A stretch of DNA of 64,000 nucleotides from the IMG/VR virus record IMGVR_UViG_3300027733_000049, positions 1 to 64,000 of that record; one strand, written 5' to 3'. Position numbers and translations under genes: made by a program. Of this stretch, positions 1,437 through 53,406 are shown piece by piece. The notes under the pieces were generated by a model, which was given only the letters and a program-made list of their open reading frames with translations, was not told the origin of the DNA and did not search any database. The DNA is from a virus. The first letter of the stretch is position 1; the number at the start of each line of letters is the position of its first letter.

Positions 1437-1440
1437 CACC

Positions 1441-2863: not shown

Positions 2864-2873
2864 CGGTACATAA

Positions 2874-3257: not shown

Positions 3258-3268
3258 AGGAGTCTAGT

Positions 3269-3445: not shown

Positions 3446-3446
3446 C

Positions 3447-4348: not shown

Positions 4349-4349
4349 T

Positions 4350-4769: not shown

Positions 4770-4951
4770 TTACCACAACCAAAGGTGAAATGGACGAATC
4801 ATTGCTTGAAAAGCGTGAAGGTTCATTAGATAATGACAACGAAACTACCACATGGGTGGAGTATTGGTTAGAGGGTGAATTAGTTCACCGTTCGGTGCAC
4901 GTACAACTAAAACGTGCAGTTGTAAGTTTTGGTGAAACTGCTGAATTTTAA
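4766..4951 (+). CDS. Hypothetical protein
   Basis: Overlap-coupled 61-aa ORF with SD AGGAG. Confidence 0.55.
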   Translation: MITTTKGEMDESLLEKREGSLDNDNETTTWVEYWLEGELVHRSVHVQLKRAVVSFGETAEF

Positions 4952-4960
4952 GGAAATATC

Positions 4961-5422: not shown

Positions 5423-5432
5423 TTGTTAAGTC

Positions 5433-6455: not shown

Positions 6456-6465
6456 GAGCATTTAA

Positions 6466-7278
6466 ATGGCAGCAACGACGACTCTCTTGGGTTTACTCAC
6501 CCCCACACAAGGAACGCTTTCTGGTACGTGGGGCGACTCAGTCAACTACGGTATTTCTGACTACGTTGACATTGCCATTGCTGGCACATTATCTTTTGCA
6601 GGTGATGGCGCTATTACTCTGGCAAACACTACGGGTAGCTCGTCAGGAAACGCAATAACTTCCACCACAGCGCAGTACATGGTGATTCGCATTACGGGTA
6701 CACAAACTGTTACCAAGGTTATTACTGGCCCTAGTTACAGCAAGCTGTACATGGTGGATCACGCAGGCGCTACTAGCGCAGTAACATTTAAAGCTTCCGG
6801 TCAAACAGGTGTATCTATAGCAGTTGGCGAAAAAGCGTTTGTGTATTACAACGGCACAGATTATGTCAAAGTAGCCACCAGCACGGGTACAGGGTCGGTT
6901 ACAAGCGTGGCGGCCTCAGTACCAAGCATATTTAGCATTGCAGGTAGCCCAATTACTACATCTGGCACATTGGCAATGACGTACTCTGGAACTGCTTTAC
7001 CAGTAGCCAATGGCGGTACAGGTTTAACATCAGGAACTTCTGGTGGTATTTTAGCCTACACAGCCGCTGGCACATTGGCATCGTCTGGTGTGTTGGCACA
7101 GTACGGGGTTGTCATTGGTGGCGGTGCAGGGGCTGTTCCAACGTCAACTGCTGTAGGTACTGCCACTCATGTGTTAACTTCAAACGGCGCTGGAGTTGCA
7201 CCTACCTTTCAAGCACCGGCAGCTTCTGGTTTATCCAGAGCGCAAGTTACTACAATTTCTTTAGTTTTTGGTTTTTAA
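6466..7278 (+). CDS. Tail fibre / fibre-attachment protein
   Basis: GTWG..VN anchor; fibre motifs LPVANGGTG and VLTSNGAGVAPTFQ. Confidence 0.6.
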   Translation: MAATTTLLGLLTPTQGTLSGTWGDSVNYGISDYVDIAIAGTLSFAGDGAITLANTTGSSSGNAITSTTAQYMVIRITGTQTVTKVITGPSYSKLYMVDHAGATSAVTFKASGQTGVSIAVGEKAFVYYNGTDYVKVATSTGTGSVTSVAASVPSIFSIAGSPITTSGTLAMTYSGTALPVANGGTGLTSGTSGGILAYTAAGTLASSGVLAQYGVVIGGGAGAVPTSTAVGTATHVLTSNGAGVAPTFQAPAASGLSRAQVTTISLVFGF

Positions 7279-32429: not shown

Positions 32430-32687
32430 TCAAATTGTTGATTGGTTGCTTTTGGCTCTGAGTGTCTTGATGACTTCGGCAATCGTTTCTCGCATCTTGG
32501 GGTGGGGCAATGATCTGCCCAAGAACCACATATATGCCGCTTGCCTTGATACACCAATATATTCAGCTACATCTTGCACCGGAATGTCTCGGTCAATACA
32601 TATGCGTCCAAGTTGCACACCAATATGTTTTTGGTCTGCCGCCTTGTTTGCTTGTATAAACTTTCGTGAATAGCCTGTGTTGTTCAT
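32430..32687 (-). CDS. XRE/Cro-like helix-turn-helix regulator
   Basis: VQDVAEYIGVSRQAAYMWFLG..P. Confidence 0.75.
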   Translation of the reverse strand: MNNTGYSRKFIQANKAADQKHIGVQLGRICIDRDIPVQDVAEYIGVSRQAAYMWFLGRSLPHPKMRETIAEVIKTLRAKSNQSTI

Positions 32688-33884: not shown

Positions 33885-34118
33885 TTAAAGAGCGATCCAT
33901 TCGCCATTGTGATCCACGTACTGTGTATCGAGATTACCGTCACACCATGTAATGATGTGTCCGATTGATGGGACTTGTTCTACAAAGAACTTGATAGTCC
34001 TTGTCATGTCAGTGCAATTGCCAGCAGGCATGTGAACGTGACCCACATTCTTTATTAGGTCGTAGGTTACGTTTGTAACTTCACACCCAAAATAGTGGTG
34101 ATCAATAGCACTACTCAT
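33885..34118 (-). CDS. Hypothetical protein
   Basis: SD AGGAG; coupled ORF. Confidence 0.5.
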   Translation of the reverse strand: MSSAIDHHYFGCEVTNVTYDLIKNVGHVHMPAGNCTDMTRTIKFFVEQVPSIGHIITWCDGNLDTQYVDHNGEWIAL

Positions 34119-34291
34119 TTAGTGTCTCCTGATGTATTTGTCATGGCTTCAAGGTCTGAGCGTTTGACTCGTACCTTTGTGCCTACTTTGAAATGCGGAA
34201 TCTTTCCCGCACGGATTAGCGCATAGACCGTCTGTCGAGAGACACGCAAGTATTTTGCTACCTCTTCAACGGTCAGAGTTTCAACTTCCAT
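34115..34291 (-). CDS. Excisionase-like HTH (HTH_17) protein, 58 aa (absent from ORF track)
   Basis: Hand translation MEVETLTVEEVAKYLRVSRQTVYALIRAGKIPHFKVGTKVRVKRSDL; SD AGGAGG. Confidence 0.8.
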   Translation of the reverse strand: MEVETLTVEEVAKYLRVSRQTVYALIRAGKIPHFKVGTKVRVKRSDLEAMTNTSGDTK

Positions 34292-39546: not shown

Positions 39547-40170
39547 TTAACCTCCAAACATTTCTTTAAGTGCGATGTGTAACGCACGGGCTTGCTTGAC
39601 CGTCAGGCTATCAAGCACATCATCCACGCTCCATTCAGTAGGTTGCTCGACCTTTGTACTGTTAGCCTTGAACTTCTCTACCAAGTCTGAGATGGAATGG
39701 TTTTCGTACTGTACGAAACTCTTAGGCATTTCTTTCATTGCCTTCTTCTGCTCCTTCACAGCACGGGCATGGGCGGCACGGGCTACCGCCTTACTACGTT
39801 CCTCTTTAGCTTTTGCCTGTAATGTTTTACGGTCTGCTTCAGGAATCACCGTGTACGCATAGACGTAACGCCCATCAATACGTTCTGTTGATTGCGAACG
39901 GGTAACATAAAACCTATCCGAAAACTGCTTGAGCATTGATGATGTAAAACTCAACGGTACATCGGGATGTAACACCGACAACTTGTTACGTAATCCAATG
40001 CTAGTGATTCCCGGGTTCTGCTCAATAACCGCCAATATACGATTTGTTATAGAGCTTTGTTTCTTCTCGTCTTTAGTTGTGTTTACCACTTTAATTTCCT
40101 CCTGTTGTGATTGATCTTCCTCGTCCCACATTTGTAGAACTTTCTTCATTTCGTCAGCTATTGATCCCAC
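39547..40170 (-). CDS. Hypothetical protein, possible winged-helix
   Basis: ILAVIEQNPGITS..L...L....SSMLKQF....YV.R; contains one palindrome copy. Confidence 0.5.
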   Translation of the reverse strand: MGSIADEMKKVLQMWDEEDQSQQEEIKVVNTTKDEKKQSSITNRILAVIEQNPGITSIGLRNKLSVLHPDVPLSFTSSMLKQFSDRFYVTRSQSTERIDGRYVYAYTVIPEADRKTLQAKAKEERSKAVARAAHARAVKEQKKAMKEMPKSFVQYENHSISDLVEKFKANSTKVEQPTEWSVDDVLDSLTVKQARALHIALKEMFGG

Positions 40171-40474
40171 TTTGATCCCTCCATTCTTGTGTGATGTGAT
40201 CTAAAATTTCCTGAACTTCTATCAGGTTCTCCTCATTGACGACAATGGCAAAGCCACCGGCATCTTTGATCTGCGCTATGTTTCTGTCTTGCAGTGCAGT
40301 GGTCTTGCCCTTGCCTGCTTTACATTCGATAGCAATAAATCTTCCCATGTAGCAGGCAACAATGTCGGGTATACCTGCTGATCCATACCCCCCTGCTATT
40401 GGGTAGAAGCAATACGCCCCTGCATCTTTAAGCAAGGCTACTACTTTGGTCTTTACTTTTTTCTCGGGTGTCAT
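40154..40474 (-). CDS. VRR-NUC / Holliday junction resolvase-like nuclease
   Basis: PEKKVK, GIPDI, FIAIECKAG, TALQ. Confidence 0.85.
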   Translation of the reverse strand: MTPEKKVKTKVVALLKDAGAYCFYPIAGGYGSAGIPDIVACYMGRFIAIECKAGKGKTTALQDRNIAQIKDAGGFAIVVNEENLIEVQEILDHITQEWRDQSGINS

Positions 40475-40646
40475 TCTCTACTCCTTTCAGTTGTGCTTCG
40501 TAATATTTCAAGGGTAACCTTGCCTTGGCTTTCAAGTGTTTGCGTAACCAATCAGCACCGCCCATGTCTTGAAATATCAACCAATCTAAATCTGACATCC
40601 GCACTTGGCGTCCTATTAGTGGCATTGGTGGTTTAGGTCTTGGCAT
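40428..40646 (-). CDS. Small putative DNA-binding protein (RHH-like)
   Basis: MPRPKP...RQVRMS..W..F...GGADWLR. Confidence 0.45.
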   Translation of the reverse strand: MPRPKPPMPLIGRQVRMSDLDWLIFQDMGGADWLRKHLKAKARLPLKYYEAQLKGVENDTREKSKDQSSSLA

Positions 40647-40656
40647 TAGTTTCCTT

Positions 40657-41259
40657 TCAAATTTTCATAAGAGTTGTGTTGTCTCCGGTAGCTACTGTCG
40701 TGTAGCCCAATTCTTTGTACTTCAATATGGTGTCTACCACTTCTTTGGGAGAGGTCAAAGAATTCGATTCAAATTTAATTATCTTTGCCGGTCTGCTTTT
40801 TTCTTTCTTGAGTACTTCCAAATAACTGGACAGAATCACGCAGTCATGCCCTTCAGTATCTACCTTTAACAAAGCGCAGTCATCTACTTGATACATACCA
40901 AACAATGTCTCAACAGAATACATTGGGATTTGTTTAGATGTGAACACATCAACTGGATCAATGTTTCTTTTTGTTAAAACTTTTACAACTGTGGGGTGAT
41001 ACGAACTGATACTGTTACAACCACGTACCCACCAAGGTAAGCCATGTTTGCTTATGACCTCTTCTGATAAATAAAATACTTCTGCCACACCATCGTGATC
41101 TGATATTGCGGATAGTACTTTATGCACATGGGGTTTACATGGCAACCTGTTAAGGTAATAAAGTATTGGATCGACTGACAGCCCTATTGAATCGTCCATA
41201 CATTTTTGAATCACAGTATCAAAATCAGATGTACCTATTTCAATAAAGTCATACTTCAT
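40657..41259 (-). CDS. FkbM-family SAM-dependent methyltransferase
   Basis: FIEIGTSD, AISD.DG, LLKVDTEGHD..IL, IKFE. Confidence 0.75.
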   Translation of the reverse strand: MKYDFIEIGTSDFDTVIQKCMDDSIGLSVDPILYYLNRLPCKPHVHKVLSAISDHDGVAEVFYLSEEVISKHGLPWWVRGCNSISSYHPTVVKVLTKRNIDPVDVFTSKQIPMYSVETLFGMYQVDDCALLKVDTEGHDCVILSSYLEVLKKEKSRPAKIIKFESNSLTSPKEVVDTILKYKELGYTTVATGDNTTLMKI

Positions 41260-41459
41260 CGCTTCATACCTCTTACATAAGCGGCAAAACTCATAGCAGT
41301 ATCACCAAAGTATTTCATGGCATCAAACTCCTTGGCAACTTCTTCTATCGTGGCGTTGCGTATCTCATCTACCAACCCAACCTTTACGGTATGTTCTTTG
41401 TCACGGTAATCGTAGTGTGCGCAACCACGTTCCCAACAACCTTTGTCCATTAGCGTCAT
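41256..41459 (-). CDS. Hypothetical protein
   Basis: Coupled ORF. Confidence 0.5.
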   Translation of the reverse strand: MTLMDKGCWERGCAHYDYRDKEHTVKVGLVDEIRNATIEEVAKEFDAMKYFGDTAMSFAAYVRGMKR

Positions 41460-41779
41460 GTGTTCTTCTCCTTGAGTTTGGCTTCAATGGCTCGGGCAAA
41501 TTCAAACCTGTTTGCGTATGGCATCGTATTACTGATGGCAAATATTTCCGCATCATCCGTCAGCCCTACCCACTTACGTTCAGGCAATGGATGCCCTGCG
41601 TGTTTGTAGGCTTCGTCACGCCAAAGTTGCGCTCGTTGTTTGTTGTACTCACAGCTTGGGCAAGGGCGCACGTATTCTTGAATGTCATCATCCTCCATAG
41701 TTATCTGCATTTGTATTTGTCGTTTACGCCAACCACTTTGAATCTTCTCAACATCTTCGGGTGTGTGTGATCTTTTCAT
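41456..41779 (-). CDS. Hypothetical protein (WVGLT..E...FARAIEAKLKEKN family)
   Basis: Common phage accessory motif. Confidence 0.55.
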   Translation of the reverse strand: MKRSHTPEDVEKIQSGWRKRQIQMQITMEDDDIQEYVRPCPSCEYNKQRAQLWRDEAYKHAGHPLPERKWVGLTDDAEIFAISNTMPYANRFEFARAIEAKLKEKNT

Positions 41780-41800
41780 CTTGGTGCATCCTCATGGTTA

Positions 41801-42805
41801 TCAGGGTTGAACTTCGGTTGCTTCGTACCCTTGTCTTTCGGGTTCGGAAACGGGGGGAACGGTGGTGTCATTCTTTTTCTCCTCTTCCCAAGCGGTTCGC
41901 AATGCTCTACCACTTAGCTTTTTGTTTAAATAATCTATGCCTGAAAATTCAATGTACTCTTGCATGGTGCGTACTCTGCCTAACCCATACACTCCCATAT
42001 CTTTACCGTTAACCAAATCTTCAAGCCGCCTTGTTGTACGCTTTTGTAATTCACCCCAATGTACAACTCGTTCTTGGGTAATATCTTTATCCCAGTGCCT
42101 CGGACGCTCCCCATACAAATGGTGCATAGGAAGGTGTGGCACATGAAATATGTCGTAGCCATGCGTAAATGCTCTTAACGCCATGGCTTGTTCCTCTCCA
42201 TTGAAATACATATACGGGTCGTATGGCACATCGTACACAAACTTACCCTGTGTAAAAAGGCAACCACCCGCAAGGTGTATCCCACGAATCGGTGTATCAC
42301 GCTTAACTCTCGTTGCTACAAACTTCAGCTTCGAATGTTTAGGTTCGAACTGTTGTGCTTTGGATGAAACAATATGTACCAACACCTCCCTGCACATACG
42401 CCTCACAATCTTTCCCTCCTTGCGTTCAAACGATGCAGGGTAACTAGACACTATGCACTTGGGGTTTATCTTTGCACACTCGGTAGCGGCATTGATTAAC
42501 TTCTCATCCCAATCTTGGTCGAATACTGAATGAGCATCGATCTGAAAGAACCAATCCTCATCGTTGTACATCGCCATACATAATGACCTTGCCCAACACG
42601 CACCTCGAGATTCTCTTGGATCAATACCAACATACTGAATCTTCTTGCTCAGTGCATCGCTCACCTTGAGTCGCTCGTTTTCATACGCTTGTTCTACAAC
42701 ACCAAACGACAAACCATTTGGGTCTTTCGCCTTATTCAATGCTTGCAGTACGGTGTGTTTAAGCATCTCATCTCGGTAGGATGCGATGCTGATGTAGATG
42801 CTCAT
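41801..42805 (-). CDS. GT60-like polypeptide GlcNAc-transferase (Gnt1/Skp1 GlcNAc-T family)
   Basis: IYISIASYRD, G.CWARS, QIDAHS.F..DWD, SSYP, VPYDP..YF.GEE. Confidence 0.75.
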   Translation of the reverse strand: MSIYISIASYRDEMLKHTVLQALNKAKDPNGLSFGVVEQAYENERLKVSDALSKKIQYVGIDPRESRGACWARSLCMAMYNDEDWFFQIDAHSVFDQDWDEKLINAATECAKINPKCIVSSYPASFERKEGKIVRRMCREVLVHIVSSKAQQFEPKHSKLKFVATRVKRDTPIRGIHLAGGCLFTQGKFVYDVPYDPYMYFNGEEQAMALRAFTHGYDIFHVPHLPMHHLYGERPRHWDKDITQERVVHWGELQKRTTRRLEDLVNGKDMGVYGLGRVRTMQEYIEFSGIDYLNKKLSGRALRTAWEEEKKNDTTVPPVSEPERQGYEATEVQP

Positions 42806-42993
42806 TGGTTGTTTGCTTCCCGCATTATGTCGTTGATAATTTTCTTGATCTTTCCATACGCATCTGCCTTGGTGTATGGCATCTGCAATATGCTTTCGAT
42901 CTCACGCAAAGCGTCATAGTATTCACCACCCTTCATTGCGTGCTGTAACTTATCCTCGTCCTCGGGGTAGGCAAATTCAAGTACTGCTTTCAT
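42802..42993 (-). CDS. Hypothetical protein (MKA.LEF..PED family)
   Basis: Coupled ORF. Confidence 0.55.
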   Translation of the reverse strand: MKAVLEFAYPEDEDKLQHAMKGGEYYDALREIESILQMPYTKADAYGKIKKIINDIMREANNQ

Positions 42994-43168
42994 TTACTCT
43001 CTCGCTTATTGGTGTCCACCCAAACCGTTTCCATGTGGCTTGCACATCTGCACCAGTTGTCCACACATATCGTGGATCATTGGCAGGAATGGTTGGCTCT
43101 GTGCGCTTAGAGAAAGGCACGGGGGGTAGTGGTATAGCAGGGTACGTATATTTAGGCTGTGCGCTCAT
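42977..43168 (-). CDS. Hypothetical protein (DVQATWKRFGW family)
   Basis: Coupled ORF with SD. Confidence 0.55.
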   Translation of the reverse strand: MSAQPKYTYPAIPLPPVPFSKRTEPTIPANDPRYVWTTGADVQATWKRFGWTPISERVNESST

Positions 43169-43463
43169 GTTGATCTCCTTCTTCTATGTAATACAAACGG
43201 TCGTGGACTTTGAATCCAACGCCCTTAATTAAGTTTCCCTCGGGTGCTATCCGCAAGATAGACACCGCCTCCATGATCCATCGTTCAACATCCTCTTGCG
43301 GGATATTTTTTCTTATCTTATTGTCATTAACACTTGGCATTGTAAAGTCTACTACATCAAATGTACCATCGTCATTGATAGAAACCCTATAACTATCACC
43401 TTTTGTTTCTATCATGTTGATCATTACTTCCATCCAAACATCCTTAGCTTCTTTGTAGTTCAT
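43152..43463 (-). CDS. Hypothetical protein, similar to the C-terminal domain of 43460..44356
   Basis: VSILRI....LIKGVGFKV....YYI versus IAVLQI.....LMDVGYKI....YWV. Confidence 0.55.
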   Translation of the reverse strand: MNYKEAKDVWMEVMINMIETKGDSYRVSINDDGTFDVVDFTMPSVNDNKIRKNIPQEDVERWIMEAVSILRIAPEGNLIKGVGFKVHDRLYYIEEGDQHERTA

Positions 43464-44356
43464 ACGAACACCCAGTACTTATCATTGTCGATCTTGTAGC
43501 CAACATCCATGAGTGCAGTCTTACTACCTTCGTTGATCTGCAACACCGCAATCTTATCCCTGATACTCTCAGGAACATCTTGTAGGTTGAACACTACGGT
43601 AGGCTCAGTGTCTCCCTCGTAGCGATACTCAACCTTATCGGTCTTAGCCCACACAAAACACTTGCGTGGTTTGTAGTTATCCATAGCTTGTAACTCTGCA
43701 CCTTGCTCTCTCAAGATGTGTAGGCTTTTCCTAAATGATTCTGTGGCGGGGGTATAGCCTGCTTGCACCATGAAATGCAACTCTTTAAGTATGTCGTCCC
43801 TCTGCATACGGGACGCTTCATACAACTTGTTCTGTGCAGGTTCTTTCATGTTGGCTATCGCACGCTCTAGATCAACGCCTGTCGATGCTACTACTTCAGT
43901 AAATGATTTAGGCTTGAGATACTGAAGTGCGTTCTTCACACCATTGGCAAACTTCTTGGTTGTCTTGATGCGATACCCCTCGCTGTACGATGCGTACTTC
44001 TCATTCATGATGCGGTCGGACTCCACAACATACATCATTTCTTTCTTGTCATTTAACTCAAGACCAATCTTACCAACACGCACAGTTGGGCAGTCCCTAT
44101 ACGCAACCGCTAAGTCTGCAAATACAAAGTACTCCAAGCCGTTGTACCGTGCGGGGCGGTAATCAGTATGCACAATCATGTCGGATCGTTTGTACTTGAT
44201 CTCGTTATAGAACTTCAAGAGTGTGCCTGTCACGGGAATATCACCAAGCCAAAACCCGTGGTTGTTTTGCTTGGCAGTATCAATGAGCGACACCAAACGG
44301 TCGTACTCGTATGTACCTTTGTAATCGTCTTTGCTAATCATGATTAAGCCCTCCAA
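43460..44356 (-). CDS. Hypothetical early protein
   Basis: 298-aa ORF; true start may be ATG at 44341. Confidence 0.65.
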   Translation of the reverse strand: MEGLIMISKDDYKGTYEYDRLVSLIDTAKQNNHGFWLGDIPVTGTLLKFYNEIKYKRSDMIVHTDYRPARYNGLEYFVFADLAVAYRDCPTVRVGKIGLELNDKKEMMYVVESDRIMNEKYASYSEGYRIKTTKKFANGVKNALQYLKPKSFTEVVASTGVDLERAIANMKEPAQNKLYEASRMQRDDILKELHFMVQAGYTPATESFRKSLHILREQGAELQAMDNYKPRKCFVWAKTDKVEYRYEGDTEPTVVFNLQDVPESIRDKIAVLQINEGSKTALMDVGYKIDNDKYWVFV

Positions 44357-44441
44357 TAAAATAAATCTAACAACACAACAACTAGACCGAGTAAAAATAC
44401 TACTCGCTCTACCTTATCAATCCATGTCCAGTTATTCCAAC

Positions 44442-45419
44442 TCATTTGACTCTCCTTCCATTTGAATAAAACGGTACGCCTACATCCACTGCCACTTGTT
44501 TGTATGGTTTTGTTAGTCGATATAGATACTCACCACGCAACCTACTCTCAAGATGCTCACGGTCAGGGTATGTAGGTTCTGACACATGATTACTACCTGA
44601 CCAAGTATGCTTCCACCTAGTATGTATAACAAACATCGCCTCAACTGCGTGCATCCACTTCTCACCAAACTCTTCGCCTTCGTTACGCACCAACCAATCG
44701 GCTTTGTCTAAAAGTTCATCCATGCTGTGCTTAAATCGCCAATCTCTGTTCTCATTCTCGGGTGTTACAAACGGACTCATGATCTCGTAGTAATTTAAGA
44801 ACGGCTCAAGTTCTTGGTACACCTTCTTAACTTTCTCACGATCAATCAACAACTTGTGTTCGGGTATGCCACCAATAACTTCGTAGAATGTTTTACCCTC
44901 ACGTTCGTACGGTACGAAAGTCATTCTCTGCCCATCTTGGTAATAGTAGTTCTTCGAGCCATCGGGTTGATCTGCACACACATATTGTTTAGAACCAAAC
45001 TTAACGTAACTAAGCCCTCTTGGAAACAACGCGCCTAACATACCCCATGTAGTGTATGTGTGCATCCATTTAGGTGTGAACTCAAAACGCCCATCGGGGC
45101 AAACCATCAATACTGGATAGTAATCTTCAGCGTACCCTGTCACAGTAACTTTGCCTGTCGCTTGATCTCGTGAATGATTTGCATAGACCGAGCAAAACGC
45201 CATGCCGTACTTGTCACCCTCTTTACGCCATATCTCGAACGTACGATGACGATCAGTCAATGGACGATGATCTGTCATGCCATGCTTTACACGCTGACCA
45301 ATCAATGGCTTGACGCTCTCATACTTCTTTTTGGTTGTCTCGTAATCAACCATGCAGATGTTGTACCCACGATAACCAAGCCTATCGTAAACACTAGAAG
45401 GTTCCGGTAATTTTTTCAT
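44442..45419 (-). CDS. Hypothetical early protein
   Basis: 325-aa ORF, SD AAAGGA; internal palindrome copy. Confidence 0.65.
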   Translation of the reverse strand: MKKLPEPSSVYDRLGYRGYNICMVDYETTKKKYESVKPLIGQRVKHGMTDHRPLTDRHRTFEIWRKEGDKYGMAFCSVYANHSRDQATGKVTVTGYAEDYYPVLMVCPDGRFEFTPKWMHTYTTWGMLGALFPRGLSYVKFGSKQYVCADQPDGSKNYYYQDGQRMTFVPYEREGKTFYEVIGGIPEHKLLIDREKVKKVYQELEPFLNYYEIMSPFVTPENENRDWRFKHSMDELLDKADWLVRNEGEEFGEKWMHAVEAMFVIHTRWKHTWSGSNHVSEPTYPDREHLESRLRGEYLYRLTKPYKQVAVDVGVPFYSNGRRVK

Positions 45420-45491
45420 GATGTTCCTTTCAAAAAATAATGAATGGGAAGTTTCGTACTGTACGAAACCGCCCTCAGAGATACCTGTAAC

Positions 45492-46673
45492 TTAGTCAAC
45501 GTAGATGACTGCACCAGTAGTAGGTGTGGGCTTGTACCCACCGACAACACACCACAAGACGGGATGTTCCCACTTGCCCCAACTACCGACATAACCATCG
45601 GTCAACACGACAACACACTCGGGCTTGATGCCACGTTCCTTGATGTACACGGGGATACACGCAGGATCAGTACCACCGCCACCCGCAGGCTTAGTTGATG
45701 ACACCAATTTATCTTGGTGATCACGGTCATATACTTCATGACCTGCAACCTCTGTGTCCCAGTACAACAGATCAACAAGTTCAGGTGAGACGTTGGCACA
45801 GATAGCCTGCACCTCAGTCAGAAACTTGTTCACCTCTGTATCACCAATAGAGCCTGACATATCGACACCAATTACGATACGCCCCATGCTCTCGGACACA
45901 GTAGAGGGCATATACATATCGTGCTGTAACCATCTACGATTAACACGTTGCCATGTGGATATATCCTTACCCACAGCCAATGATGAGATGAAGTCACGCA
46001 ACTGTTCACGCCAGTCAACCTTGGGTTCGAGCAACGCACCGATCTCACGGGACAAGTTACCACCCATCTTGCCTGCATGGATTTGACCTTGACGGATTGC
46101 TTGGTTCACCTCTTTGATGTGATCCTCAATCTCTTGCTGTGTCATGTCGCCTGTGTCCCAATCGTGTGAGTCAAAGCCACCTGCACCCTCATCACCATCT
46201 TCACCGCCACCACCCCCACCGCCTTGCTTGAGGATGTTGAATACTTCCTGTGAGTCCATGCCACGGAACTTCTCGCTGAGTAAGCCCATCTTAGGTAATA
46301 CAACAAACCCATTCGTTGCCTTCTCAATGTCCTTGATGATGAGGTTGATCACATAGTCACAAGCCATGTTCGCACACTTAGCGTGTTCCTCATACAGATG
46401 CTTCCACAAGAACGTATGCTGAAACAACTTGTGTAGATTCTCATGCAAGATAACGCCACGCAACTCAGCATCGGGCAGAGCTTCAACAAACTCTTTGCCA
46501 TAGATACAGTCGATGCCGTTGGTGCAAGCTGTTGGCACAGTCTCATCTACACGGTACTTGCCTACCATAATGACGCCTGCATACTCCATCGTTGCCTTGT
46601 GTGCCATTAACTCCACATGAGCACGCTCAATGCGCTTAAGCGCAGTTAGAGATTGTGTTGCTGTTATAAACAT
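45492..46673 (-). CDS. DUF2201-type metallopeptidase-VWA protein
   Basis: PTACTNG, HExxH (LHENLH), N.ACDYVIN, MIDAS VDMSGS, GGGGTD, LTDGY. Confidence 0.85.
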   Translation of the reverse strand: MFITATQSLTALKRIERAHVELMAHKATMEYAGVIMVGKYRVDETVPTACTNGIDCIYGKEFVEALPDAELRGVILHENLHKLFQHTFLWKHLYEEHAKCANMACDYVINLIIKDIEKATNGFVVLPKMGLLSEKFRGMDSQEVFNILKQGGGGGGGEDGDEGAGGFDSHDWDTGDMTQQEIEDHIKEVNQAIRQGQIHAGKMGGNLSREIGALLEPKVDWREQLRDFISSLAVGKDISTWQRVNRRWLQHDMYMPSTVSESMGRIVIGVDMSGSIGDTEVNKFLTEVQAICANVSPELVDLLYWDTEVAGHEVYDRDHQDKLVSSTKPAGGGGTDPACIPVYIKERGIKPECVVVLTDGYVGSWGKWEHPVLWCVVGGYKPTPTTGAVIYVD

Positions 46674-46749
46674 AATGATTTCCTTTCATGGTTAAAGATG
46701 TTGGGGGGCTTTCGTACTGTACGAAAGGGGTCCCCACGATTTACTACTA

Positions 46750-47829
46750 TTACTTACGAGCAAACAAGTAATTGTTGTCAGCCGCCCACTTAGCGAATCT
46801 AGGATTCGTTGCCGCAATCGTACGCTTGGGACACATATCGGACATGACGCTACGAGCGAACAAGCCTTGTGCTTCCTTAGACATACGAGGTAAGAACTGC
46901 ATCCAAGCATCCATCGTGGACTTCTCAATGCGCTGTACCGCTTTGGCAATCAACATACAACCCGCAGGGGCAGATGTAGGTACAGTCGCAGTAGTTGGAG
47001 ACTTGATAAGGTCATCCCAGTTAGTCAACTGCGTATCCAACTTAATCATGGTCAACAAGTTGTGCATTGCCTTCTCACCTACTGTACCCTTCAGGGCATG
47101 ACACATCACATCGTCACCCAAGATCATGGTGCGCTTGATAACATCCGATGCTGTCTCTAAAGATCTTGGTGTAACGAACGCCATACGCACATCACGGGGA
47201 TCATTGATGTATGTGTTCTGACGTGGATCTTCGTAGTCCTCGAACGATGCCAACATCTCAGGGAACTCTTGCACAGTCGCAATGACCACAGGGTGAAAGC
47301 CATTGTTGATGCCGTACTGCATAACTTCTTCAGCATTAGGCTTGCCAACACGAACCTGAATCACACGGTTACGAGCATGGGGCGGTACGTTATCACCGAT
47401 ACCTTCTATCGATAAGTTGGTAGTCGCAAACACAATACCATCCAAGTCCCATATACCCAATGAACGCTCTTGCATAAGACGCAGGCAGGCATTGAGTACA
47501 CCGCCCTTGGCTTTGCCGATCTCATCGAGCATCATCACAACCTTCTTACCCTTGAAGTGCAAACCGAATTCCTCATTAGGCACAAAGCGGCACACCTCAA
47601 CACCATCAATGTCCTTGATCTTGGGAACCATGAAGTCACCAACATCTTTGGTAGTGATGTCAACGTAGCAAAAGAAATGATCCTTCAACTCAGGCTTGTT
47701 GCGTAGCATCTTCAGGATAGATGACTTACCAATACCCATCTCACCTTGCGCTAAGACGGTACGCACATCACCAACAGCCGCAATCAAGTCAGCAGTTTGT
47801 GACAGGGACAAAGATTTATACATAGACAT
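46750..47829 (-). CDS. AAA+ ATPase (MoxR-like)
   Basis: Walker A GEMGIGKS, Walker B MMLDE, ATTN, TPRS. Confidence 0.8.
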   Translation of the reverse strand: MSMYKSLSLSQTADLIAAVGDVRTVLAQGEMGIGKSSILKMLRNKPELKDHFFCYVDITTKDVGDFMVPKIKDIDGVEVCRFVPNEEFGLHFKGKKVVMMLDEIGKAKGGVLNACLRLMQERSLGIWDLDGIVFATTNLSIEGIGDNVPPHARNRVIQVRVGKPNAEEVMQYGINNGFHPVVIATVQEFPEMLASFEDYEDPRQNTYINDPRDVRMAFVTPRSLETASDVIKRTMILGDDVMCHALKGTVGEKAMHNLLTMIKLDTQLTNWDDLIKSPTTATVPTSAPAGCMLIAKAVQRIEKSTMDAWMQFLPRMSKEAQGLFARSVMSDMCPKRTIAATNPRFAKWAADNNYLFARK

Positions 47830-47927
47830 GGTTGATTCCTTTCAAAGAATTAAAAAACAACTTACACAATAAAACAACTAACACACAAGGGCAAGTTTCG
47901 TACAGTACGAAACCGCCCACCCATAAC

Positions 47928-48797
47928 TTACAGAGAGAACTTGTCGAGCAACGCATCGACCTTGTTCTTGGTTTGCTCACGCAACATATCTGATTCACGC
48001 AATGACTGTGCATCTACATGACGCATGGTGTCCTCCAACTCCATACGCATGGCTTCCAACTTCAGATCACCACCGATGTTGAAGTGCTTGAGCAACTGAC
48101 ACAACTCAACAGCGTTATCTACAAGCGAGTCACGAAAGATTTTGCGCTTGCCATCTTCGGTATCACCAAGTCGCTCTGACATGGCAGTCAACACACCATG
48201 CAACCTATCCCACGCATCACGCATTGCATCGTTGAGCCGTGATGACAGCACACCTTCGTAATGATCCTGCATCTCACGCAAGCCTTCCTCACCAATGTCT
48301 ACACGAAAGTCACCTGCCATAGGCAATGGTGTAAACGCATATCGAAAGCCGAACTTGCCCACGATCTGATCACGGTGCGGATAGTCCTCACGATTGAATA
48401 GATCACCAAGTTGAAAAGCCGCCGCCGCAACAAGCGTGTCGTACTCATTAAGAAAGTTGTTGACAGATGTTGCGAACTGCGTCTCGTACTCGGACAGCCG
48501 TGACTTGTAGTCAATGAACGATGCCATGTTCAGCACACGATCACCGTTGTCACCCCATGGCTGTGTCACCGTGTAGTGCCATGTACGAATCGCACTCGCA
48601 ACTTTGTTGATCTCCTCCAACTTACCCGAACCTGCTAATAGGTTCTTGTTGTAGTTGCCCGCCCGAGTCTTGGTGCTGTTTTGTTGGTCAACTTCTTCAG
48701 AGACACGCTTGTCCAACTTACGCCCAGTCCATACGGACATAGACAGATTCACGATCAGGGCAGAGCCTGACAACTTAGATACGTTTACTTGTTCCAT
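47928..48797 (-). CDS. DUF3150-like protein
   Basis: L...WTGRK.D, helical body, IFRDSLV; next to the AAA/VWA pair. Confidence 0.55.
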   Translation of the reverse strand: MEQVNVSKLSGSALIVNLSMSVWTGRKLDKRVSEEVDQQNSTKTRAGNYNKNLLAGSGKLEEINKVASAIRTWHYTVTQPWGDNGDRVLNMASFIDYKSRLSEYETQFATSVNNFLNEYDTLVAAAAFQLGDLFNREDYPHRDQIVGKFGFRYAFTPLPMAGDFRVDIGEEGLREMQDHYEGVLSSRLNDAMRDAWDRLHGVLTAMSERLGDTEDGKRKIFRDSLVDNAVELCQLLKHFNIGGDLKLEAMRMELEDTMRHVDAQSLRESDMLREQTKNKVDALLDKFSL

Positions 48798-48891
48798 GAT
48801 ATTTCCCTTTCATGTTTCATTACATTTCAATATGCTTTCGTACCGTACGAAACCACATCACCTTACACACAATACTACCTAACCAACCTAT

Positions 48892-48920
48892 ATTATAACA
48901 GATCAACATAGCTATGTCAA
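48892..48920 (-). promoter_or_regulatory. Consensus sigma70 early promoter
   Basis: TTGACA-17 nt-TATAAT with TGn extension on - strand. Confidence 0.85.
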
Positions 48921-48924
48921 TCTA

Positions 48925-49137
48925 TCACTTACTGGCACGTGATTCAACTTCAGCCCGTGCCTTCTTGCACTCACGCACAAACGTCTCCCGATCCTCATCG
49001 TTGTCGATGAAGTGCGTAATAAATTTGCGTGCGGCATGAACTTCCCGCTTGGCGTCAATCAAGAAACCTGTAACCAGTACAGCCCACCCCAACAACACCA
49101 ACTCAATCAATGTGAACTCAATCATGCTTACCTCCAT
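48925..49137 (-). CDS. Small membrane protein
   Basis: One N-terminal TM segment. Confidence 0.5.
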   Translation of the reverse strand: MEVSMIEFTLIELVLLGWAVLVTGFLIDAKREVHAARKFITHFIDNDEDRETFVRECKKARAEVESRASK

Positions 49138-49242
49138 TTAAGTTGTTACGTATTACCCACCGAGCGTCAATGCGACTAGCAAACCATTTGCTCAATCGTT
49201 GGCACTCGTACCCTTCACACTCATCCTGCAATAACCCGTACG

Positions 49243-49479
49243 TCATTCATCCTCCCATTTAATAACATTGCGTGTTTCATACTCAAACCATTCCTGTTGT
49301 GTGTACGGGAAACGCCCATACTCTTTGCGGAACATAACTGCATCGCAGTCAGGGCATCCCTTCATATACGTCTTGCATGGCTTGACGTCACGAATAAACC
49401 ACATCGTGTTGCTGTCACCCATGAATGGCGGGTTTGCCATGCGTGCCAATATCTTGTGCTTGTTCTTGCGTACTTTCAT
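49243..49479 (-). CDS. Hypothetical protein (CxxC)
   Basis: SD AGGAGG. Confidence 0.5.
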   Translation of the reverse strand: MKVRKNKHKILARMANPPFMGDSNTMWFIRDVKPCKTYMKGCPDCDAVMFRKEYGRFPYTQQEWFEYETRNVIKWEDE

Positions 49480-49482
49480 TTG

Positions 49483-49656
49483 TTAACCTCCTAAGTTCCA
49501 AGATTTAGGGGGTATCTGTTTCAATACCTCCCTTGCGCACTCAATGTCGTGAGACAAGGTTTCAATCATTGACCCCTCTTCTATGTAACTGTCGGCTGAC
49601 TGCATGAGGTTGTTCAACGCTTCACCTAACAGTTCAATCTTTTCTGCATCAGTCAT
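49483..49656 (-). CDS. 57-aa hypothetical protein (absent from ORF track)
   Basis: Hand translation MTDAEKIELLGEALNNL...WNLGG*; SD AAGGAG; fills a gap in the operon. Confidence 0.5.
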   Translation of the reverse strand: MTDAEKIELLGEALNNLMQSADSYIEEGSMIETLSHDIECAREVLKQIPPKSWNLGG

Positions 49657-49889
49657 ATATCACTCCTTAAGTTCTTTTGGTTTGTTTGTTTTAGCGTGAT
49701 ACTTATTGCCGCTTTTGTAACGTACATATATCCGCCCTTTTGATACTCTTGCACCACAGTCCACGACTTGCGCTCTACTTGTGCGGCTTGCTCACCACAC
49801 ATCAAACACAATCGGTAACCATTACCCCACCGTTCGATGTGTATGTCATCACCACATTCACGGCACTCTCTCCAATCAGAATGGAACAT
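49653..49889 (-). CDS. Zn-finger protein (DksA/TraR-like C4 pattern)
   Basis: CRECGDDI..ER...GYRLCLMC. Confidence 0.5.
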   Translation of the reverse strand: MFHSDWRECRECGDDIHIERWGNGYRLCLMCGEQAAQVERKSWTVVQEYQKGGYMYVTKAAISITLKQTNQKNLRSDI

Positions 49890-50250
49890 CTTGCATCTCC
49901 TCTACTACTTTCGTACTGTACGAAATCAAACCCACCGAACCTTCACGCTGTACTACCTGCATATCCTCCAAGCACAACGATGTGGTACGTACACATGGGT
50001 GTAGCTGTGTCTTGTGCTTAGTTGTTGTACGGCTGTACTTGGTGCTGTTCTCGTACCATGTGTCCGACAATGGCTCGTATATAAACAATGGGAAGTTGTA
50101 GCGATACGAATACACGACATACCGTTTCACAATGTCCCGTGTCCCGTCAATGCCTTGCTCGTACCACTCACTAAAGATGTTCGAACCTCTGAACACCTTG
50201 TGTTCTCTTACATACTCCCGAGCATCACGGTTTGCTATGTGCTTAGTCAT
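49876..50250 (-). CDS. Hypothetical early protein (YVVYSY...KYS.TT.KH family)
   Basis: Start refined to MTKHI at 50250. Confidence 0.6.
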   Translation of the reverse strand: MTKHIANRDAREYVREHKVFRGSNIFSEWYEQGIDGTRDIVKRYVVYSYRYNFPLFIYEPLSDTWYENSTKYSRTTTKHKTQLHPCVRTTSLCLEDMQVVQREGSVGLISYSTKVVEEMQDVPF

Positions 50251-50282
50251 TTGTTTCCCCTTTCGTACGGTACGAAACCGCT

Positions 50283-50447
50283 TTACGCATACCATTTATA
50301 AATGCGGTGATACTCATCCACCACATCACCATACCCAAGTGTGAAAAGTAATTGGCACAAGACAACATCCGCTTCCTTGTGCGCTACCTCTACATCAAGG
50401 TCTTTCCCTAATGTCTTTAGCGTTTCGATTGCTTCTTCTCTCGTCAT
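50283..50447 (-). CDS. 54-aa hypothetical protein (H..AD..LC.LL..LGY...KWYA; absent from ORF track)
   Basis: Hand translation; fills a gap in the operon. Confidence 0.55.
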   Translation of the reverse strand: MTREEAIETLKTLGKDLDVEVAHKEADVVLCQLLFTLGYGDVVDEYHRIYKWYA

Positions 50448-50857
50448 TCCTCTACCTCCTGTGGTGTGTATGTCATGTCATAAAAACCTGATGCGTATTG
50501 GCTGTCCTGCTTGCCGAATCGGAAACCTACGTATCTGTACGTACCATCGGGGCGTTTGCTACACGCATAGAAAAACCCTTTCGGATACTGCGATCTGTAC
50601 AGCATGGCGTTCCTCGCCCATTGCGCACGGGTTTGTTCAATCCTTGCGTCTTTCCATTCATCGTAATAACCGCCTGCATACCAGTCGTTGATCTCGTATC
50701 GAGCACGATACAAGTCCCAGTCCTCATACTTGTGGTTTTGCAACCACTCAGGCACAACATCTGCAAGTGCGTTGTACATCTCGTAATCACTCAGCACGAT
50801 GCTGTCAGGGAACTCGCCCATCTGCGCTTCCAATAATGATTTGTATTTCATTTCCAT
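50444..50857 (-). CDS. Hypothetical early protein
   Basis: Coupled ORF. Confidence 0.55.
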   Translation of the reverse strand: MEMKYKSLLEAQMGEFPDSIVLSDYEMYNALADVVPEWLQNHKYEDWDLYRARYEINDWYAGGYYDEWKDARIEQTRAQWARNAMLYRSQYPKGFFYACSKRPDGTYRYVGFRFGKQDSQYASGFYDMTYTPQEVEE

Positions 50858-51030
50858 TCTCCCTTCATTAACTTCTGTTCGTCACGTCTAGCTACTTTCA
50901 ACGCTTTCGTACGGTACGAATCTAGCTTGACATTATTCTGTCGGTCAGAAGTTGTATCGCTGACAAAGCCACACCACAACATCTTGTCACGATGTTTGTT
51001 ATTGATTAACTTGCGTTCGAGCTTGTTCAT
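50848..51030 (-). CDS. Hypothetical early protein
   Basis: SD AAAGGA; contains a palindrome copy. Confidence 0.45.
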   Translation of the reverse strand: MNKLERKLINNKHRDKMLWCGFVSDTTSDRQNNVKLDSYRTKALKVARRDEQKLMKGEWK

Positions 51031-51786
51031 GAGAGTCCTTTCGGTTGGTTGATTGAATAGTGGTCATGACGCCACCGCATAGCACACAACCAAGTGTGCT
51101 ACACGCTATCGTCTCTTACGGGTTAGAGTCAACATAACCCGCTGTCGTAATTGGTAGTTCTGTTGTGACTTGTACGCATGGCTTGAGCATTTGGTTTTTT
51201 ACTAACTGCGATAGTGTTTGTCGTTGCCACATCTCCCGTTCGTACAGTACGAAAGGCTTGGCTTCCTAGTGGTTGTTGGTATGTGTTCGGCATTGTCATA
51301 GGACATACTTCGGGTTTCCCCAAGATTGATAGTCCCGTGTTGTGTATATAGACAACACTCTCACATACATACTCCACGTTAGGGCTGTTGCGTTATTAGC
51401 GCAGAGCAACCCACACATTTAGGCAGTATCTACATTAGCTTGCACATCGCTATCGGTTGTGTTCGGTGCGATACAGCACACTACTAACCTACACCACGAT
51501 GTACTCCGACTGACTACGGAACGCCTATTCACTCCATGTAAGGTGTCATGGGTGAGTACATATCGTGGGCTTCGCAATCCATCCTATACATATACACCTG
51601 TCAACCTGTGGGCTTCTTGCATCAAGCAAGCGGCAGTTTGGTTCGTTGCGGTTACCCCAACTTTCGTACAGTACGAAAGCCAGAGAGGTTGCAACTGGTC
51701 TAGCAGATTTTTAAAGAGCGTGTGGTGTACCACCGACTTTCGTACTGTACGAAAGCGTCATAGGGAAATGTTCCAAATGAGCTTTA

Positions 51787-51815
51787 ATTATACTAGGTTT
51801 ACGCTACTTTGTCAA
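51787..51815 (-). promoter_or_regulatory. Consensus sigma70 early promoter
   Basis: TTGACA-17 nt-TATAAT on - strand. Confidence 0.85.
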
Positions 51816-51856
51816 GCTGTTACTAGTTAGATATGGGGGGTATAACAGCACATTAG

Positions 51857-52448
51857 TTCTGCAATATTCTAGAGGGGAGAATAAAGGTAAGTCGTTGATT
51901 CATAAGGGTTTATTGATGCTTTTTTTTGTTTTATTCTAATATTCTTGGTTTTTGGGGTTAAGCGAGACAATAAGCAAAGGTGAACAAGAACACGAGAAAA
52001 CATCTGTGTGCATACACGTAAGAATGTATAAATACCAAAATAAATTTGGGGTGTATATATATTTATTTAAAGAATAATAGAATAATAGGGGTCAAAACCT
52101 TTGCAAGTGCTTGATTTCATTGAGGTTTGTTTTATTCTCATGCAGAGAATATTGCAGAATAATTAGCGAGTAATACGGCATCGTACTGCCGTTACGTTTC
52201 GTACAGTACGAAAGTTCTAAGTTTCAGCACGTCCCACAAAGAGGTTACAGGTTTCGTACGGTACGAAAGTCAAGCTGGTATAAGTAGTAGTATCTGTAAC
52301 ACTATCTAGTGACACGCAGTACGACCCACAGTAAGGTTACAGGTTTCCGTGGGGTTTCGTACTGTACGAAAGTTTGGTGGGTGTTGAGCGACCCACGATG
52401 TGCATACTGCCCACATCTTGTACGGCACGCGGTAAGGTTACAGGTTTC
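51857..52448. other. Putative replication origin / packaging-control region
   Basis: AT-rich non-coding DNA; nested inverted repeats; two IHF consensus matches (51888, 52104); three AGGTTACAGGTTTC direct repeats; three palindromes. Confidence 0.5.
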
Positions 52449-52462
52449 AAAAGTTTGAGACG

Positions 52463-52496
52463 AAAAAAAACCCCCAACCTTTCGGTCAGGGGTTTT
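52463..52496 (-). terminator. Intrinsic terminator of the 52508..53014 gene
   Basis: A8-CCCC...GGGGTTTT imperfect hairpin; U-tract on the - strand. Confidence 0.6.
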
Positions 52497-52507
52497 GGGA
52501 CTGAAGA

Positions 52508-53014
52508 TTACTTCAGTTTGATGCCAGAGGCTTCAAGGTAAGATTTGATCCCTTCATGCAAGGTATCAAACTCAGCGTTTTCATAACTTGTTTGCAAGTC
52601 ATCCATGAAGCCTTCGAAGTCAGCGTCACGATAAACAGTTGCCAGTTTATCTGCAAACTCTTTTTTGCCTTTGGCGGCATTGGACGTGCCGCCTGCTTTC
52701 TTAGCACGTTGCAAGTTCCAATCGGTGACTGGCTTGCCTGATTCGACCGCCTTTTTAAAGGTGGGCAAATAGGTTTTCTGCGCCGTGCTTTGAGTCAAGC
52801 CTGAAGCCATGCAACCATCGACAAAGGCAGTTGCCAAACCGCAACCAGTACCATCCTTTTTGTAAGTGCCAATCTTTGCCTTGGCTTTATGCAAAGCCAA
52901 GATGTTGTTATTGGCTTCAGTCTTAAAAGCTTCAGCAGATGCCAAAGCTTTATTCATGTTGCCAACAGATGCGCCACAGGCTTGCGCCAAGGATGTCAGG
53001 GAAAGTGCGCTCAT
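52508..53014 (-). CDS. Stand-alone hypothetical protein (168 aa)
   Basis: Start refined to MSALSL after SD AAAGGA; own terminator; palindrome upstream. Confidence 0.65.
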   Translation of the reverse strand: MSALSLTSLAQACGASVGNMNKALASAEAFKTEANNNILALHKAKAKIGTYKKDGTGCGLATAFVDGCMASGLTQSTAQKTYLPTFKKAVESGKPVTDWNLQRAKKAGGTSNAAKGKKEFADKLATVYRDADFEGFMDDLQTSYENAEFDTLHEGIKSYLEASGIKLK

Positions 53015-53406
53015 GATGTTTCCTTTCAAAGAGCATCGGGGGAAACGAACGTCTCCGCAACCGACAACTGAACTGTACCTGAACCATACCAGTTTGCACG
53101 GGATAGCCCTACCCTTACAGCATTTTCGTACTGTACGAAAGTCGATACCCCCACCCCCAAGATATAGGGATTGGTTCCATGGCGAGTATGTGTACTGAGA
53201 ATTGCTCGTTACAACACCATTTTTCAAATCACCCATACATATATACAAACAAAAACACACCCCCCATCTATGTTAGATGTAGTTCAAACATACCTCAACA
53301 TCTTGAGGGGGGTACCCCCATACGAAAACGTCTGTACTTATTAATAAGTACCAACACAAAAACACCCCCCGGTAAGGGGACCCAAAAGGGTAGTCGTAAA
53401 AAAATT

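Follow-up and report, generated by a model that had tools for sequence, protein, structure and literature searches.

Sixteen copies of a conserved palindrome in one arm of an uncultured freshwater phage, and a small phage protein as their candidate reader

Dispersed operator networks in phages

Dispersed and strictly conserved palindromes are, to our knowledge, common in phages, and the proteins that read them are almost never known. The IncP-1 protein KorB is a dimeric global regulator whose palindromic operator, OB, occurs at about a dozen places, both at promoters and far from them. The repressor of the Streptomyces phage phiC31 reportedly acts at 17-bp conserved inverted repeats (CIRs), first seen as an autoregulatory operator and with conserved copies in early intergenic regions. 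Published networks include the operators and stoperators of the Cluster A mycobacteriophages (L5 gp71, Bxb1 and the TipsytheTRex repressor), where the bound repressor is believed to halt elongation as well as initiation (PMC6550527, PMC9283540) and where motif and repressor diverge jointly into specificity groups (PMC6550527). Cluster O mycobacteriophages such as Corndog carry more than 30 copies, genome-wide, of the 17-bp dyad repeat TGTTCGG-N3-CCGAACA (PMC4351075). The subject of the present analysis is a 64,000-bp stretch of phage DNA (the window), bases 1-64000 of the 74,238-bp IMG/VR virus record IMGVR_UViG_3300027733_000049, which CheckV rates as complete. It contains 16 copies of a 17-bp palindrome, TTTCGTAC-N-GTACGAAA, in a single arm of leftward genes, and the first gene of that arm encodes a 168-aa protein, p168, the candidate reader of these sites.

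This locus resembles the Cluster A networks in that many near-identical sites occupy promoters and short intergenic gaps, and in that the motif diverges together with its candidate reader into specificity groups. Nevertheless, Cluster A stoperators are 13 bp long, asymmetric and oriented with transcription, whereas the sites described here are palindromes of 17-21 bp in which only the central base is strand-biased. Cluster A genomes hold 20-30 sites genome-wide, compared with 9-16 in one arm only; their reader is a monomer with two domains of the helix-turn-helix (HTH) type, while the candidate p168 has no HTH match; and they are temperate, with an integrase or parABS, in contrast to the present phages, in which no lysogeny genes were found. 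With Cluster O the locus shares invariant 7-bp inverted arms, a variable centre and a mostly intergenic location or one near gene starts, the function there being unknown; the promoters are of the SigA type in Cluster O and of the sigma70 type here. The Cluster O repeat, however, has a 3-bp spacer, another sequence and no proposed reader, whereas the present one has a 1-bp spacer, 8-bp arms and 16 copies in one arm, as well as a candidate reader and five co-varying specificity classes. With regard to the other two systems, phiC31 is said to be temperate, with a repressor larger than p168 and unrelated to it, and KorB belongs to the ParB family, of which the ParB_N domain gave no match at E<=1 in this phage record although the control genomes gave matches.

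The original prediction, made from the letters of this stretch, had called the palindrome a candidate undescribed operator or DNA-tagging system. As a kind, dispersed conserved operator networks had already been published (PMC6550527, PMC9283540, PMC4351075), so that "undescribed" was an overstatement. What is new here is an uncultured freshwater lineage without a cultured relative, an unannotated candidate reader and a co-variation between residues and bases. Natural variation singles out a candidate reader together with the residues that would determine its specificity, and the resulting predictions are testable with oligonucleotides and point mutants, without culturing phage or host.

The palindromes and their distribution

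A scan allowing up to two mismatches recovered 16 copies of the palindrome, all within 39702-53140 and all in the block of minus-strand genes that spans 29.5 to 53.3 kb. Thirteen copies are exact and the other three differ by one mismatch each, at base 1 or 17 only. In 100 shuffles, the number expected by chance had a mean of 0.01 and a maximum of 1. The remainder of the 74,238-bp record holds no further copy, and neither isolated 8-mer half-sites nor copies with two mismatches occur in the record, the next best match having three mismatches. The count, the coordinates and the confinement to this region had all been given correctly by the original prediction, as had the variable central base, for which all four values are found, and the rising density toward 51-53 kb, with eight sites in the interval 50.9-53.1 kb. 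The four consecutive gaps between genes that it had seen as occupied (45419/45492, 46673/46750, 47829/47928 and 48797/48925) do contain one palindrome each. The copies that it had placed just 3' of both perfect sigma70 promoters start 32 and 39 nt after the -10 hexamer. It had also counted four copies inside coding sequence; four were found (39702, 44903, 49909 and 50905), plus a fifth, 51238, in a doubtful open reading frame (ORF). Across 60 sense-oriented sites from five genomes, the palindrome extends weakly to 21 bp, R-C-TTTCGTAC-N-GTACGAAA-G-Y.

The exact pattern was found in IMG/VR in 32 stretches on about 20 contigs, mostly in multiple copies. Four complete relatives with 70-86% DNA identity have 9-16 copies each, confined to the homologous arm, and mismatches in these genomes hit the outermost bases only. 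In one of the relatives (G001), a palindrome at G001:66348 lies inside the block aligned to window positions 39550-40474, the region of site P (Table 1). This layout is shared by the related uncultured phages overall: their 5-16 sites stay clear of long ORFs and are restricted, in each genome, to an 8-14-kb stretch of one arm. In 15 related genomes there are 145 perfect 15-bp cores against four cores with one mismatch, and ORFs of at least 80 aa hold 13 of the 145 sites, compared with 83 expected from coding coverage. Two near-consensus sigma70 promoters are kept in all 15 genomes, and 24 of these 30 promoters have a palindrome whose start lies 32-44 nt past the -10 hexamer.

With regard to the habitat and the wider relationships of this lineage, the DNA sequencing runs in which the arm occurs come from metagenomes of freshwater and rivers. 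A megablast search of the arm against 50,697 phage records gave only one match, of 46 bp; tblastn of p168 against cultured phages gave none, and the MoxR-like ATPase of the arm has at most 26% identity to cultured phages. Logan contigs from two metatranscriptomes span parts of the arm, including p168 and site A; DNA carry-over is possible in these data, and transcript ends are not visible in them.

Five palindrome types and a co-varying protein

Relatives with other arm types were reached via the ATPase gene, the last type being found later. Five types are distinguished: T1, TTTCGTAC-N-GTACGAAA, with the arm TTCGTAC, to which this phage belongs; T2, TTTCATAC-N-GTATGAAA, arm TTCATAC; T3, TTTCCCAC-N-GTGGGAAA, arm TTCCCAC; T4, cTTCATAT-S-ATATGAAg, arm TTCATAT; and T5, TTTCCTAC-N-GTAGGAAA, arm TTCCTAC. 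With few exceptions each genome has a single arm type, and hybrid sites are very rare. Within a genome all copies agree, and between genomes both arms change in concert. Neighbouring genes give trees on which the types are dispersed, the type changing 8-10 times in those of the ATPase, DUF3150 and VWA, and different types co-occur in the same samples, for instance 3300011116 and 3300033076. Taken together, the concerted changes of the arms, the scattered types and their co-occurrence are most simply explained by a phage-encoded reader that co-evolves with the sites.

The stand-alone protein at 52508..53014, which the original prediction had listed among the candidate binders, is the one that co-varies with the motif. 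Among the arm genes kept in all 15 genomes, only for p168 and a 298-aa protein (p298) is every T1 sequence closer to the other T1 sequences than to any from outside T1. An alignment search with p168 covered 65 IMG/VR loci and 52 unique proteins. All 12 T1 loci have Thr at residue 81, whereas the 40 others have either Val (6) or Asn (34). Leu85, Gly100 and Lys103 are present in 12 of 12 T3 loci and nowhere else, and Glu98 in eight of eight T4 loci and nowhere else. Furthermore, T4 has Gln or Asn in place of Arg103, and it is precisely in this type that the innermost half-site pair is T:A instead of C:G. The Thr/Val subfamily comprises 19 sequences; when residue 81 is left out of its tree, the type flips five times between T1 and T2, and residue 81 agrees with the type in 19 of 19 sequences. 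Such private residues for each type fit a divergence of motif and reader into specificity groups. On these alignments, residue 81 (Thr, Val or Asn) is predicted to correspond to half-site position 5, and residue 103 (Arg or Gln) to position 8.

A natural example of the association is provided by the genome G011 (IMGVR_UViG_3300022752_000073), in which overlapping contig ends come from two strains with different p168 alleles. A T3-type p168 is followed by T3 sites and a T4-type p168 by T4 sites, with one foreign site in each; the contig is either a recent recombinant or a chimeric assembly.

Three further proteins had been proposed as binders in the original prediction. In the XRE protein (32430-32687) and the Xis-like HTH_17 protein (34115-34291), no alignment column separates T1 from T2 genomes, and the ORF resembling a ribbon-helix-helix (RHH) protein (40428-40646) has a match in only two of the 14 relatives compared, so that none of the three proposals was sustained. 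p298 (43460-44356) has no type-specific column among 28 sequences. In samples of 26-29 sequences, DUF3150, VWA, p298 and a 103-aa protein (p103) lack a type-separating column, and the ATPase and an Hjc-like protein have one highly variable column each, whereas p168 has clean ones. A genome-wide comparison of 44 families in 14 genomes gave seven families with one or two columns fixed in T1; those of the ATPase were lost in the larger sample, and five other families besides p168 are known from the 14 genomes only. Ten further small proteins of the arm have no DNA-binding domain.

Structure and family of p168

The p168 protein is composed of a helical N-domain (residues 1-107), a disordered linker rich in Lys and Gly, and a small acidic helical C-domain. 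The AlphaFold models have predicted local distance difference test (pLDDT) scores of 79 for the whole protein and 82 for the N-domain. In these models, the N-domain consists of a 38-residue helix (6-43), a loop (YKKDGTGC), helix 2 (59-70), helix 3 (75-92), another loop and the beginning of helix 4 (98-106). On helix 3, the invariant Thr77 shares a face with residues 81 and 85, at the spacing i, i+4, i+8, and the other co-varying residues lie in 98-103. According to the models, the helix 3 face and segment 98-103 may together form a reading head for the major groove.

The family is small and comprises 132 clusters at 50% identity among 1.84 billion representatives, with members of 53-268 aa, mostly about 170-250 aa; two distant homologues are absent from IMG/VR. 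No meaningful Pfam annotation was found in it, two members matching SBDS_domain_II weakly (best E 0.0012), and p168 shows no signature of an NTPase, initiator, nuclease, recombinase or transposase. In the ESM Atlas, the nearest clusters are exclusively viral and lack any family annotation; the nearest named cluster scores 0.83, which is the chance level. The C-domain (52508-52660) occurs in the family in two unrelated-looking versions, KLATCF-RDADFEGF... and LFRPAFNHDKGKSF..., which are swapped independently of the N-domain and of the palindrome type.

A site on DNA or a hairpin in RNA

The original prediction had favoured a dimeric protein that reads DNA sequence over an RNA hairpin, and both the flanking bases and the folding results bear this out. 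At the flank positions -1/+17 of the 60 sites, the pairs CG (22), GG (13), CC (8) and GC (5) occur as the product of their marginal frequencies: with G at -1, base +17 is still mostly G, and an extension of the stem is impossible at 30 of the 60 sites. Such independent preferences suggest two identical half-sites rather than a helix. The bare motif folds as RNA with about -4.5 kcal/mol (several copies between -4.4 and -6.6), no better than shuffled sequences, and four intergenic copies reach -13 to -17 kcal/mol with extended stems that derive from chance G+C flanks. Compensatory stem changes in relatives, which the original prediction had named as the mark of an RNA structure, do occur between genomes. 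However, they are uniform in each genome and track a protein, and in this respect they behave like the half-sites of a dimer and not like an RNA stem.

Several other functions of the palindrome were also considered and rejected. It does not have the features of an intrinsic terminator, since only two of the seven stem pairs are G:C, the bare fold is weak and no T-run follows; among 343 unique sites, no enrichment of T-runs was found at any offset. A promoter element or an activator box of fixed geometry is likewise excluded, as no -10-like or -35-like hexamer lies at a constant distance from the same 343 sites. Its GTAC is not kept in the variants, which excludes a restriction or methylation target.

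The reader, the proposed mechanism and the alternatives

On balance, the palindromes probably constitute a stoperator-like network of many high-affinity operators, read by a p168 dimer that regulates its own gene and blocks early transcription. We infer that p168 binds DNA and forms dimers, and likewise the sign and the purpose of the control. One p168 subunit would read each half-site, R-C-TTTCGTAC, by means of Thr77, residues 81 and 85 and segment 98-103. The early promoters would be fired by the host RNA polymerase and p168 would accumulate, binding to site A and thereby controlling its own gene. Bound at about +25 to +45 downstream of both sigma70 early promoters, it would act as a roadblock to elongation, and further p168 in the short spaces separating the early genes would strengthen the block, in the way that operators and stoperators work in the Cluster A mycobacteriophages (PMC6550527, PMC9283540). 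The protein would also occupy the two to four sites beside the origin-like AT-rich core. Since no integrase, resolvase or ParB was found (no PF00589, PF00239 or PF02195 match in the complete record), a device for early shut-off or timing in a virulent phage is more likely than a lysogeny switch. The five co-circulating specificity classes would then need another driver, possibly interference between co-infecting relatives.

A number of observations weigh against this proposal. The independent contrasts behind the co-variation number three on well-supported branches and five on all branches, which places statistical significance out of reach, and p168 adjoins the sites, so that linkage feeds the association. 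Helix 3 does not differ between the readers of T5 and the Asn-type readers of T2, and the proposed residue code is therefore incomplete, with some determinants elsewhere. Searches of p168 against Pfam, PHROGs and PDB sequences gave no match, and Foldseek against the PDB gave a best E-value of 0.9. VIA-align, with the whole protein and with the N-domain, reached a best Z of 5.3 with chorismate-mutase-like three-helix subunits, a result that is uninformative for helical proteins. A site at +25 to +45 is not at the classical position for blocking a promoter, and no promoter for p168 itself could be identified. The lack of integrase, resolvase and ParB matches also leaves a repressor of the lysogeny type without a context. 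Finally, the central base is strand-biased on the sense strand in four of the five types, with C:G at 146 against 49 (37:17 in T1, 77:23 in T2, 22:9 in T4 and 10:0 in T5), and the background skew of the arm is opposite. Such a bias is invisible to a symmetric dimer on duplex DNA. The lack of A and T at the T4 centre is explained by the TATAAT hexamer that either base would create, but the excess of C over G is not, and it leaves room for a secondary role that may act at the RNA level or be linked to polarity.

That last observation is one of those in favour of RNA, or extruded single-strand, hairpins with a 7-bp stem and a 3-nt loop, which p168 or another factor would read for antitermination, processing, stability or translation. 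Nearly all sites do lie in transcribed leaders or in gaps ahead of ribosome-binding sites, each early promoter has one downstream of it, much as with cognate N-boxB pairs, the four intergenic copies have strong extended stems, and the arms change in concert between genomes. In lambda, nevertheless, there is one nut boxB hairpin with a specific loop for each early promoter, or about two per genome, whereas the present phages have 9-16 sites, far from the two or so that antitermination needs, and a loop base that is free in three of the five types (T1-T3). The stem is invariant within a genome without covariation among the copies, the -1/+17 bases do not covary, the stem cannot be extended at half of the sites and several fold no better than shuffles. 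A strong terminator precedes sites B-D. In p168, the co-varying residues share one helix face, and an Arg-to-Gln change paired with G to A is typical of the reading of duplex DNA in the major groove. Hairpins as the functional form thus appear rather unlikely. As for N4, a single-subunit RNA polymerase packaged in the virion uses 5-7-bp hairpins with 3-nt loops at a few early promoters. The present palindromes have a fitting hairpin geometry, but the early promoters here are of sigma70 consensus and the 2161-aa virion protein matches DarB-like C-terminal families only. No RNA_pol (PF00940) or sigma domain was found, the search for RNA polymerase matching no control genome either.

The proximity of some sites to the AT-rich core raises the alternative of loading or initiator sites for replication or DNA organisation, used by an origin-binding protein or by one that spreads like KorB or ParB; parS-like loading sites had been among the ideas of the original prediction. 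The iteron-bearing core that separates p168 from P1 always has two to four palindromes beside it, a turn in the cumulative GC skew falls at 50-54 kb, and the sites are uniform in an all-or-none fashion. Even so, this alternative seems unlikely: most palindromes lie in gene gaps and promoter leaders over 8-13 kb and not at the core, and the GAATAWTA repeats of the core are constant across T1-T4 whatever the palindrome type, pointing to a different, conserved reader. Moreover, the parS comparison lacks its ParB_N domain, and p168 has no NTPase or initiator motif. The scattering of types on neighbour-gene trees, the rare hybrid sites and the contigs of mixed type would suit targets of recombination or of a nuclease at cassette boundaries, or small mobile palindromic elements made uniform by copying. 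The palindromes at 50261 and 50905 enclose a cassette of small early genes (50245-51025) for which the closest relative has a replacement, and in run X24 a relative has 52372 joined to 52512, a junction that borders the palindrome at 52355-52371 (site B). Against this, the only enzymes of the kind found in the arm are the PD-(D/E)XK exonuclease and the Hjc-like resolvase, neither of which tracks the type; site positions are syntenic across genomes of 70% identity, and most mosaic breakpoints lie away from the sites. Such targets are accordingly quite improbable as an explanation for the sites, although their uniformity, the scattered types and the site-bounded cassette leave room for a role that may lie in modular exchange. 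The least credible alternative is a transcription-factor box of the host or a borrowed host element like the repetitive extragenic palindromic (REP) sequences, even though the early promoters are of the host sigma70 type, so that host factors act here. Exact matches in bacterial genomes (596 Gb, 185,579 species; degenerate host sites would escape such a scan) amounted to 47 stretches, 46 of them single-copy and no more than expected by chance, which makes a host regulon or REP element very unlikely. The sole multi-copy match, with seven copies, is a 9-kb phage-like contig binned in a pond metagenome-assembled genome (MAG). Phages from the same samples differ in type, and the type follows a phage protein; a host protein, the remaining binder of the original prediction, is therefore improbable.

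A wider claim would go beyond the preferred reading of a multi-operator network bound by p168. The protein might be the founder of a family, not recognised before, whose members bind specific DNA sequences by a novel helical reading head. One to three residues (81, 85 and 98-103) would reprogramme its specificity and thereby divide freshwater phages that occur together and seem to be virulent into five or more regulator and operator classes, all mutually orthogonal. Such a diversification would resemble that of immunity systems but without lysogeny, and interference between co-infecting relatives may have driven it. This is tentative and somewhat doubtful. If the predictions for residues 81 and 103 hold, they would imply a new DNA-binding fold and a natural set of at least five orthogonal repressor-operator pairs suited to sigma70 promoters of consensus sequence, as well as a case of regulator and operator diversification in phages that show no lysogeny genes.

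Architecture of the arm and further observations

The arm encodes a DUF927 primase-helicase, an SNF2 helicase, a PD-(D/E)XK exonuclease and a family A DNA polymerase, together with an N-acetylglucosamine (GlcNAc) glycosyltransferase, a VWA/DUF2201 protein, the MoxR-like ATPase and a DUF3150 protein. Rightward from 53.5 kb lie the terminase, portal and structural genes. The p168 gene opens the leftward arm with its own upstream palindrome and its own terminator, and is followed by a non-coding region of 750-1100 bp with two to four palindromes, a second repeat and the AT-rich core, and then by P1. P2 sits 2.9 kb beyond P1 in this phage and 0.8-3.3 kb beyond it in relatives. The features are listed in Table 1.

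Table 1. Palindrome sites and associated features of the arm (window positions)
Feature	Position	Strand	Remarks
p168, candidate reader	52508..53014	-	168 aa; candidate by co-variation with palindrome type
Intrinsic terminator	52467..52496	-	directly 3' of p168; 13-bp stem, then T-run; kept in relatives
Origin-like non-coding core	51830..52190 (borders approximate)	.	CCCCTATTATTCTATTATTCT, TATATATATA run, GAATAWTA repeats
Promoter P1	51787..51815	-	TTGACA-17-TATAAT, 12/12 sigma70; counterpart in all 15 genomes
Promoter P2	48892..48920	-	TTGACA-17-TATAAT, 12/12 sigma70, TG extension
Site A	53124..53140	.	110 bp 5' of p168 start codon; between conserved G-rich block and CTATCCCGTGCAA block
Site B	52355..52371	.	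non-coding, past p168 terminator
Site C	52252..52268	.	non-coding, TTGAC just before
Site D	52197..52213	.	borders AT-rich origin-like core
Site E	51738..51754	.	starts 32 nt past P1 -10 hexamer
Site F	51662..51678	.	within P1 leader
Site G	51238..51254	.	1 mismatch, outer base; weak coding potential around it
Site H	50905..50921	.	1 outer mismatch; near 3' end of 60-aa ORF, 48 nt ahead of next start codon
Site I	50261..50277	.	intergenic; 11 nt ahead of ATG at 50250
Site J	49909..49925	.	in 3' end of upstream gene; 20 nt ahead of ATG at 49889
Site K	48836..48852	.	starts 39 nt past P2 -10 hexamer, 39 nt ahead of DUF3150 gene start
Site L	47896..47912	.	gap between DUF3150 and ATPase genes
Site M	46710..46726	.	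gap between ATPase and VWA genes
Site N	45452..45468	.	gap between VWA and 325-aa genes
Site O	44903..44919	.	1 outer mismatch; within 325-aa gene; position kept in relatives
Site P	39702..39718	.	within 207-aa gene; sole site near replication genes

The AT-rich core resembles a replication origin in its sequence and may function as one. Its GAATAWTA repeats are scattered, both direct and inverted, and the core is shared by T1-T4 relatives regardless of palindrome type, whereas the T5 relative differs. The second repeat, CTGTwyCCTy-N5-kkGCCGyAC, is present in two to four copies beside the palindromes downstream of p168 (window 52300-52330 and 52222-52249), and also occurs in relatives with small sequence differences.

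The position of site A upstream of p168 is kept in types T1-T4, where it is bracketed by the G-rich block GGGGGTGGGGG (53147-53160 in this phage) and by CTATCCCGTGCAA (53094-53106). In T5 relatives, the palindrome and G-rich tracts upstream of p168 are kept and the CTATCCCGTGCAA block is absent. The two blocks may be promoter or packaging signals.

With regard to the rest of the record, window positions 505-6876 and record positions 62963-71092 are two diverged copies (69-90% nucleotide identity) of a structural block of 6.5-8 kb, and the record measures 74 kb, compared with 60-67 kb for the complete relatives. Either the assembly ran into a co-occurring strain or the duplication is real. The structural block ends with the gene for the 2161-aa protein (22748-29233), whose last 700 residues match giant virion families that are DarB-like or unknown, and which contains a weak FtsK-gamma-like stretch at residues 740-800. 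In the arm, many gene starts, those at 45419, 46673, 47829, 48797 and 53014 among them, share an unusually uniform context, in which TGAAAGGAA is followed after 5-7 nt by ATG.

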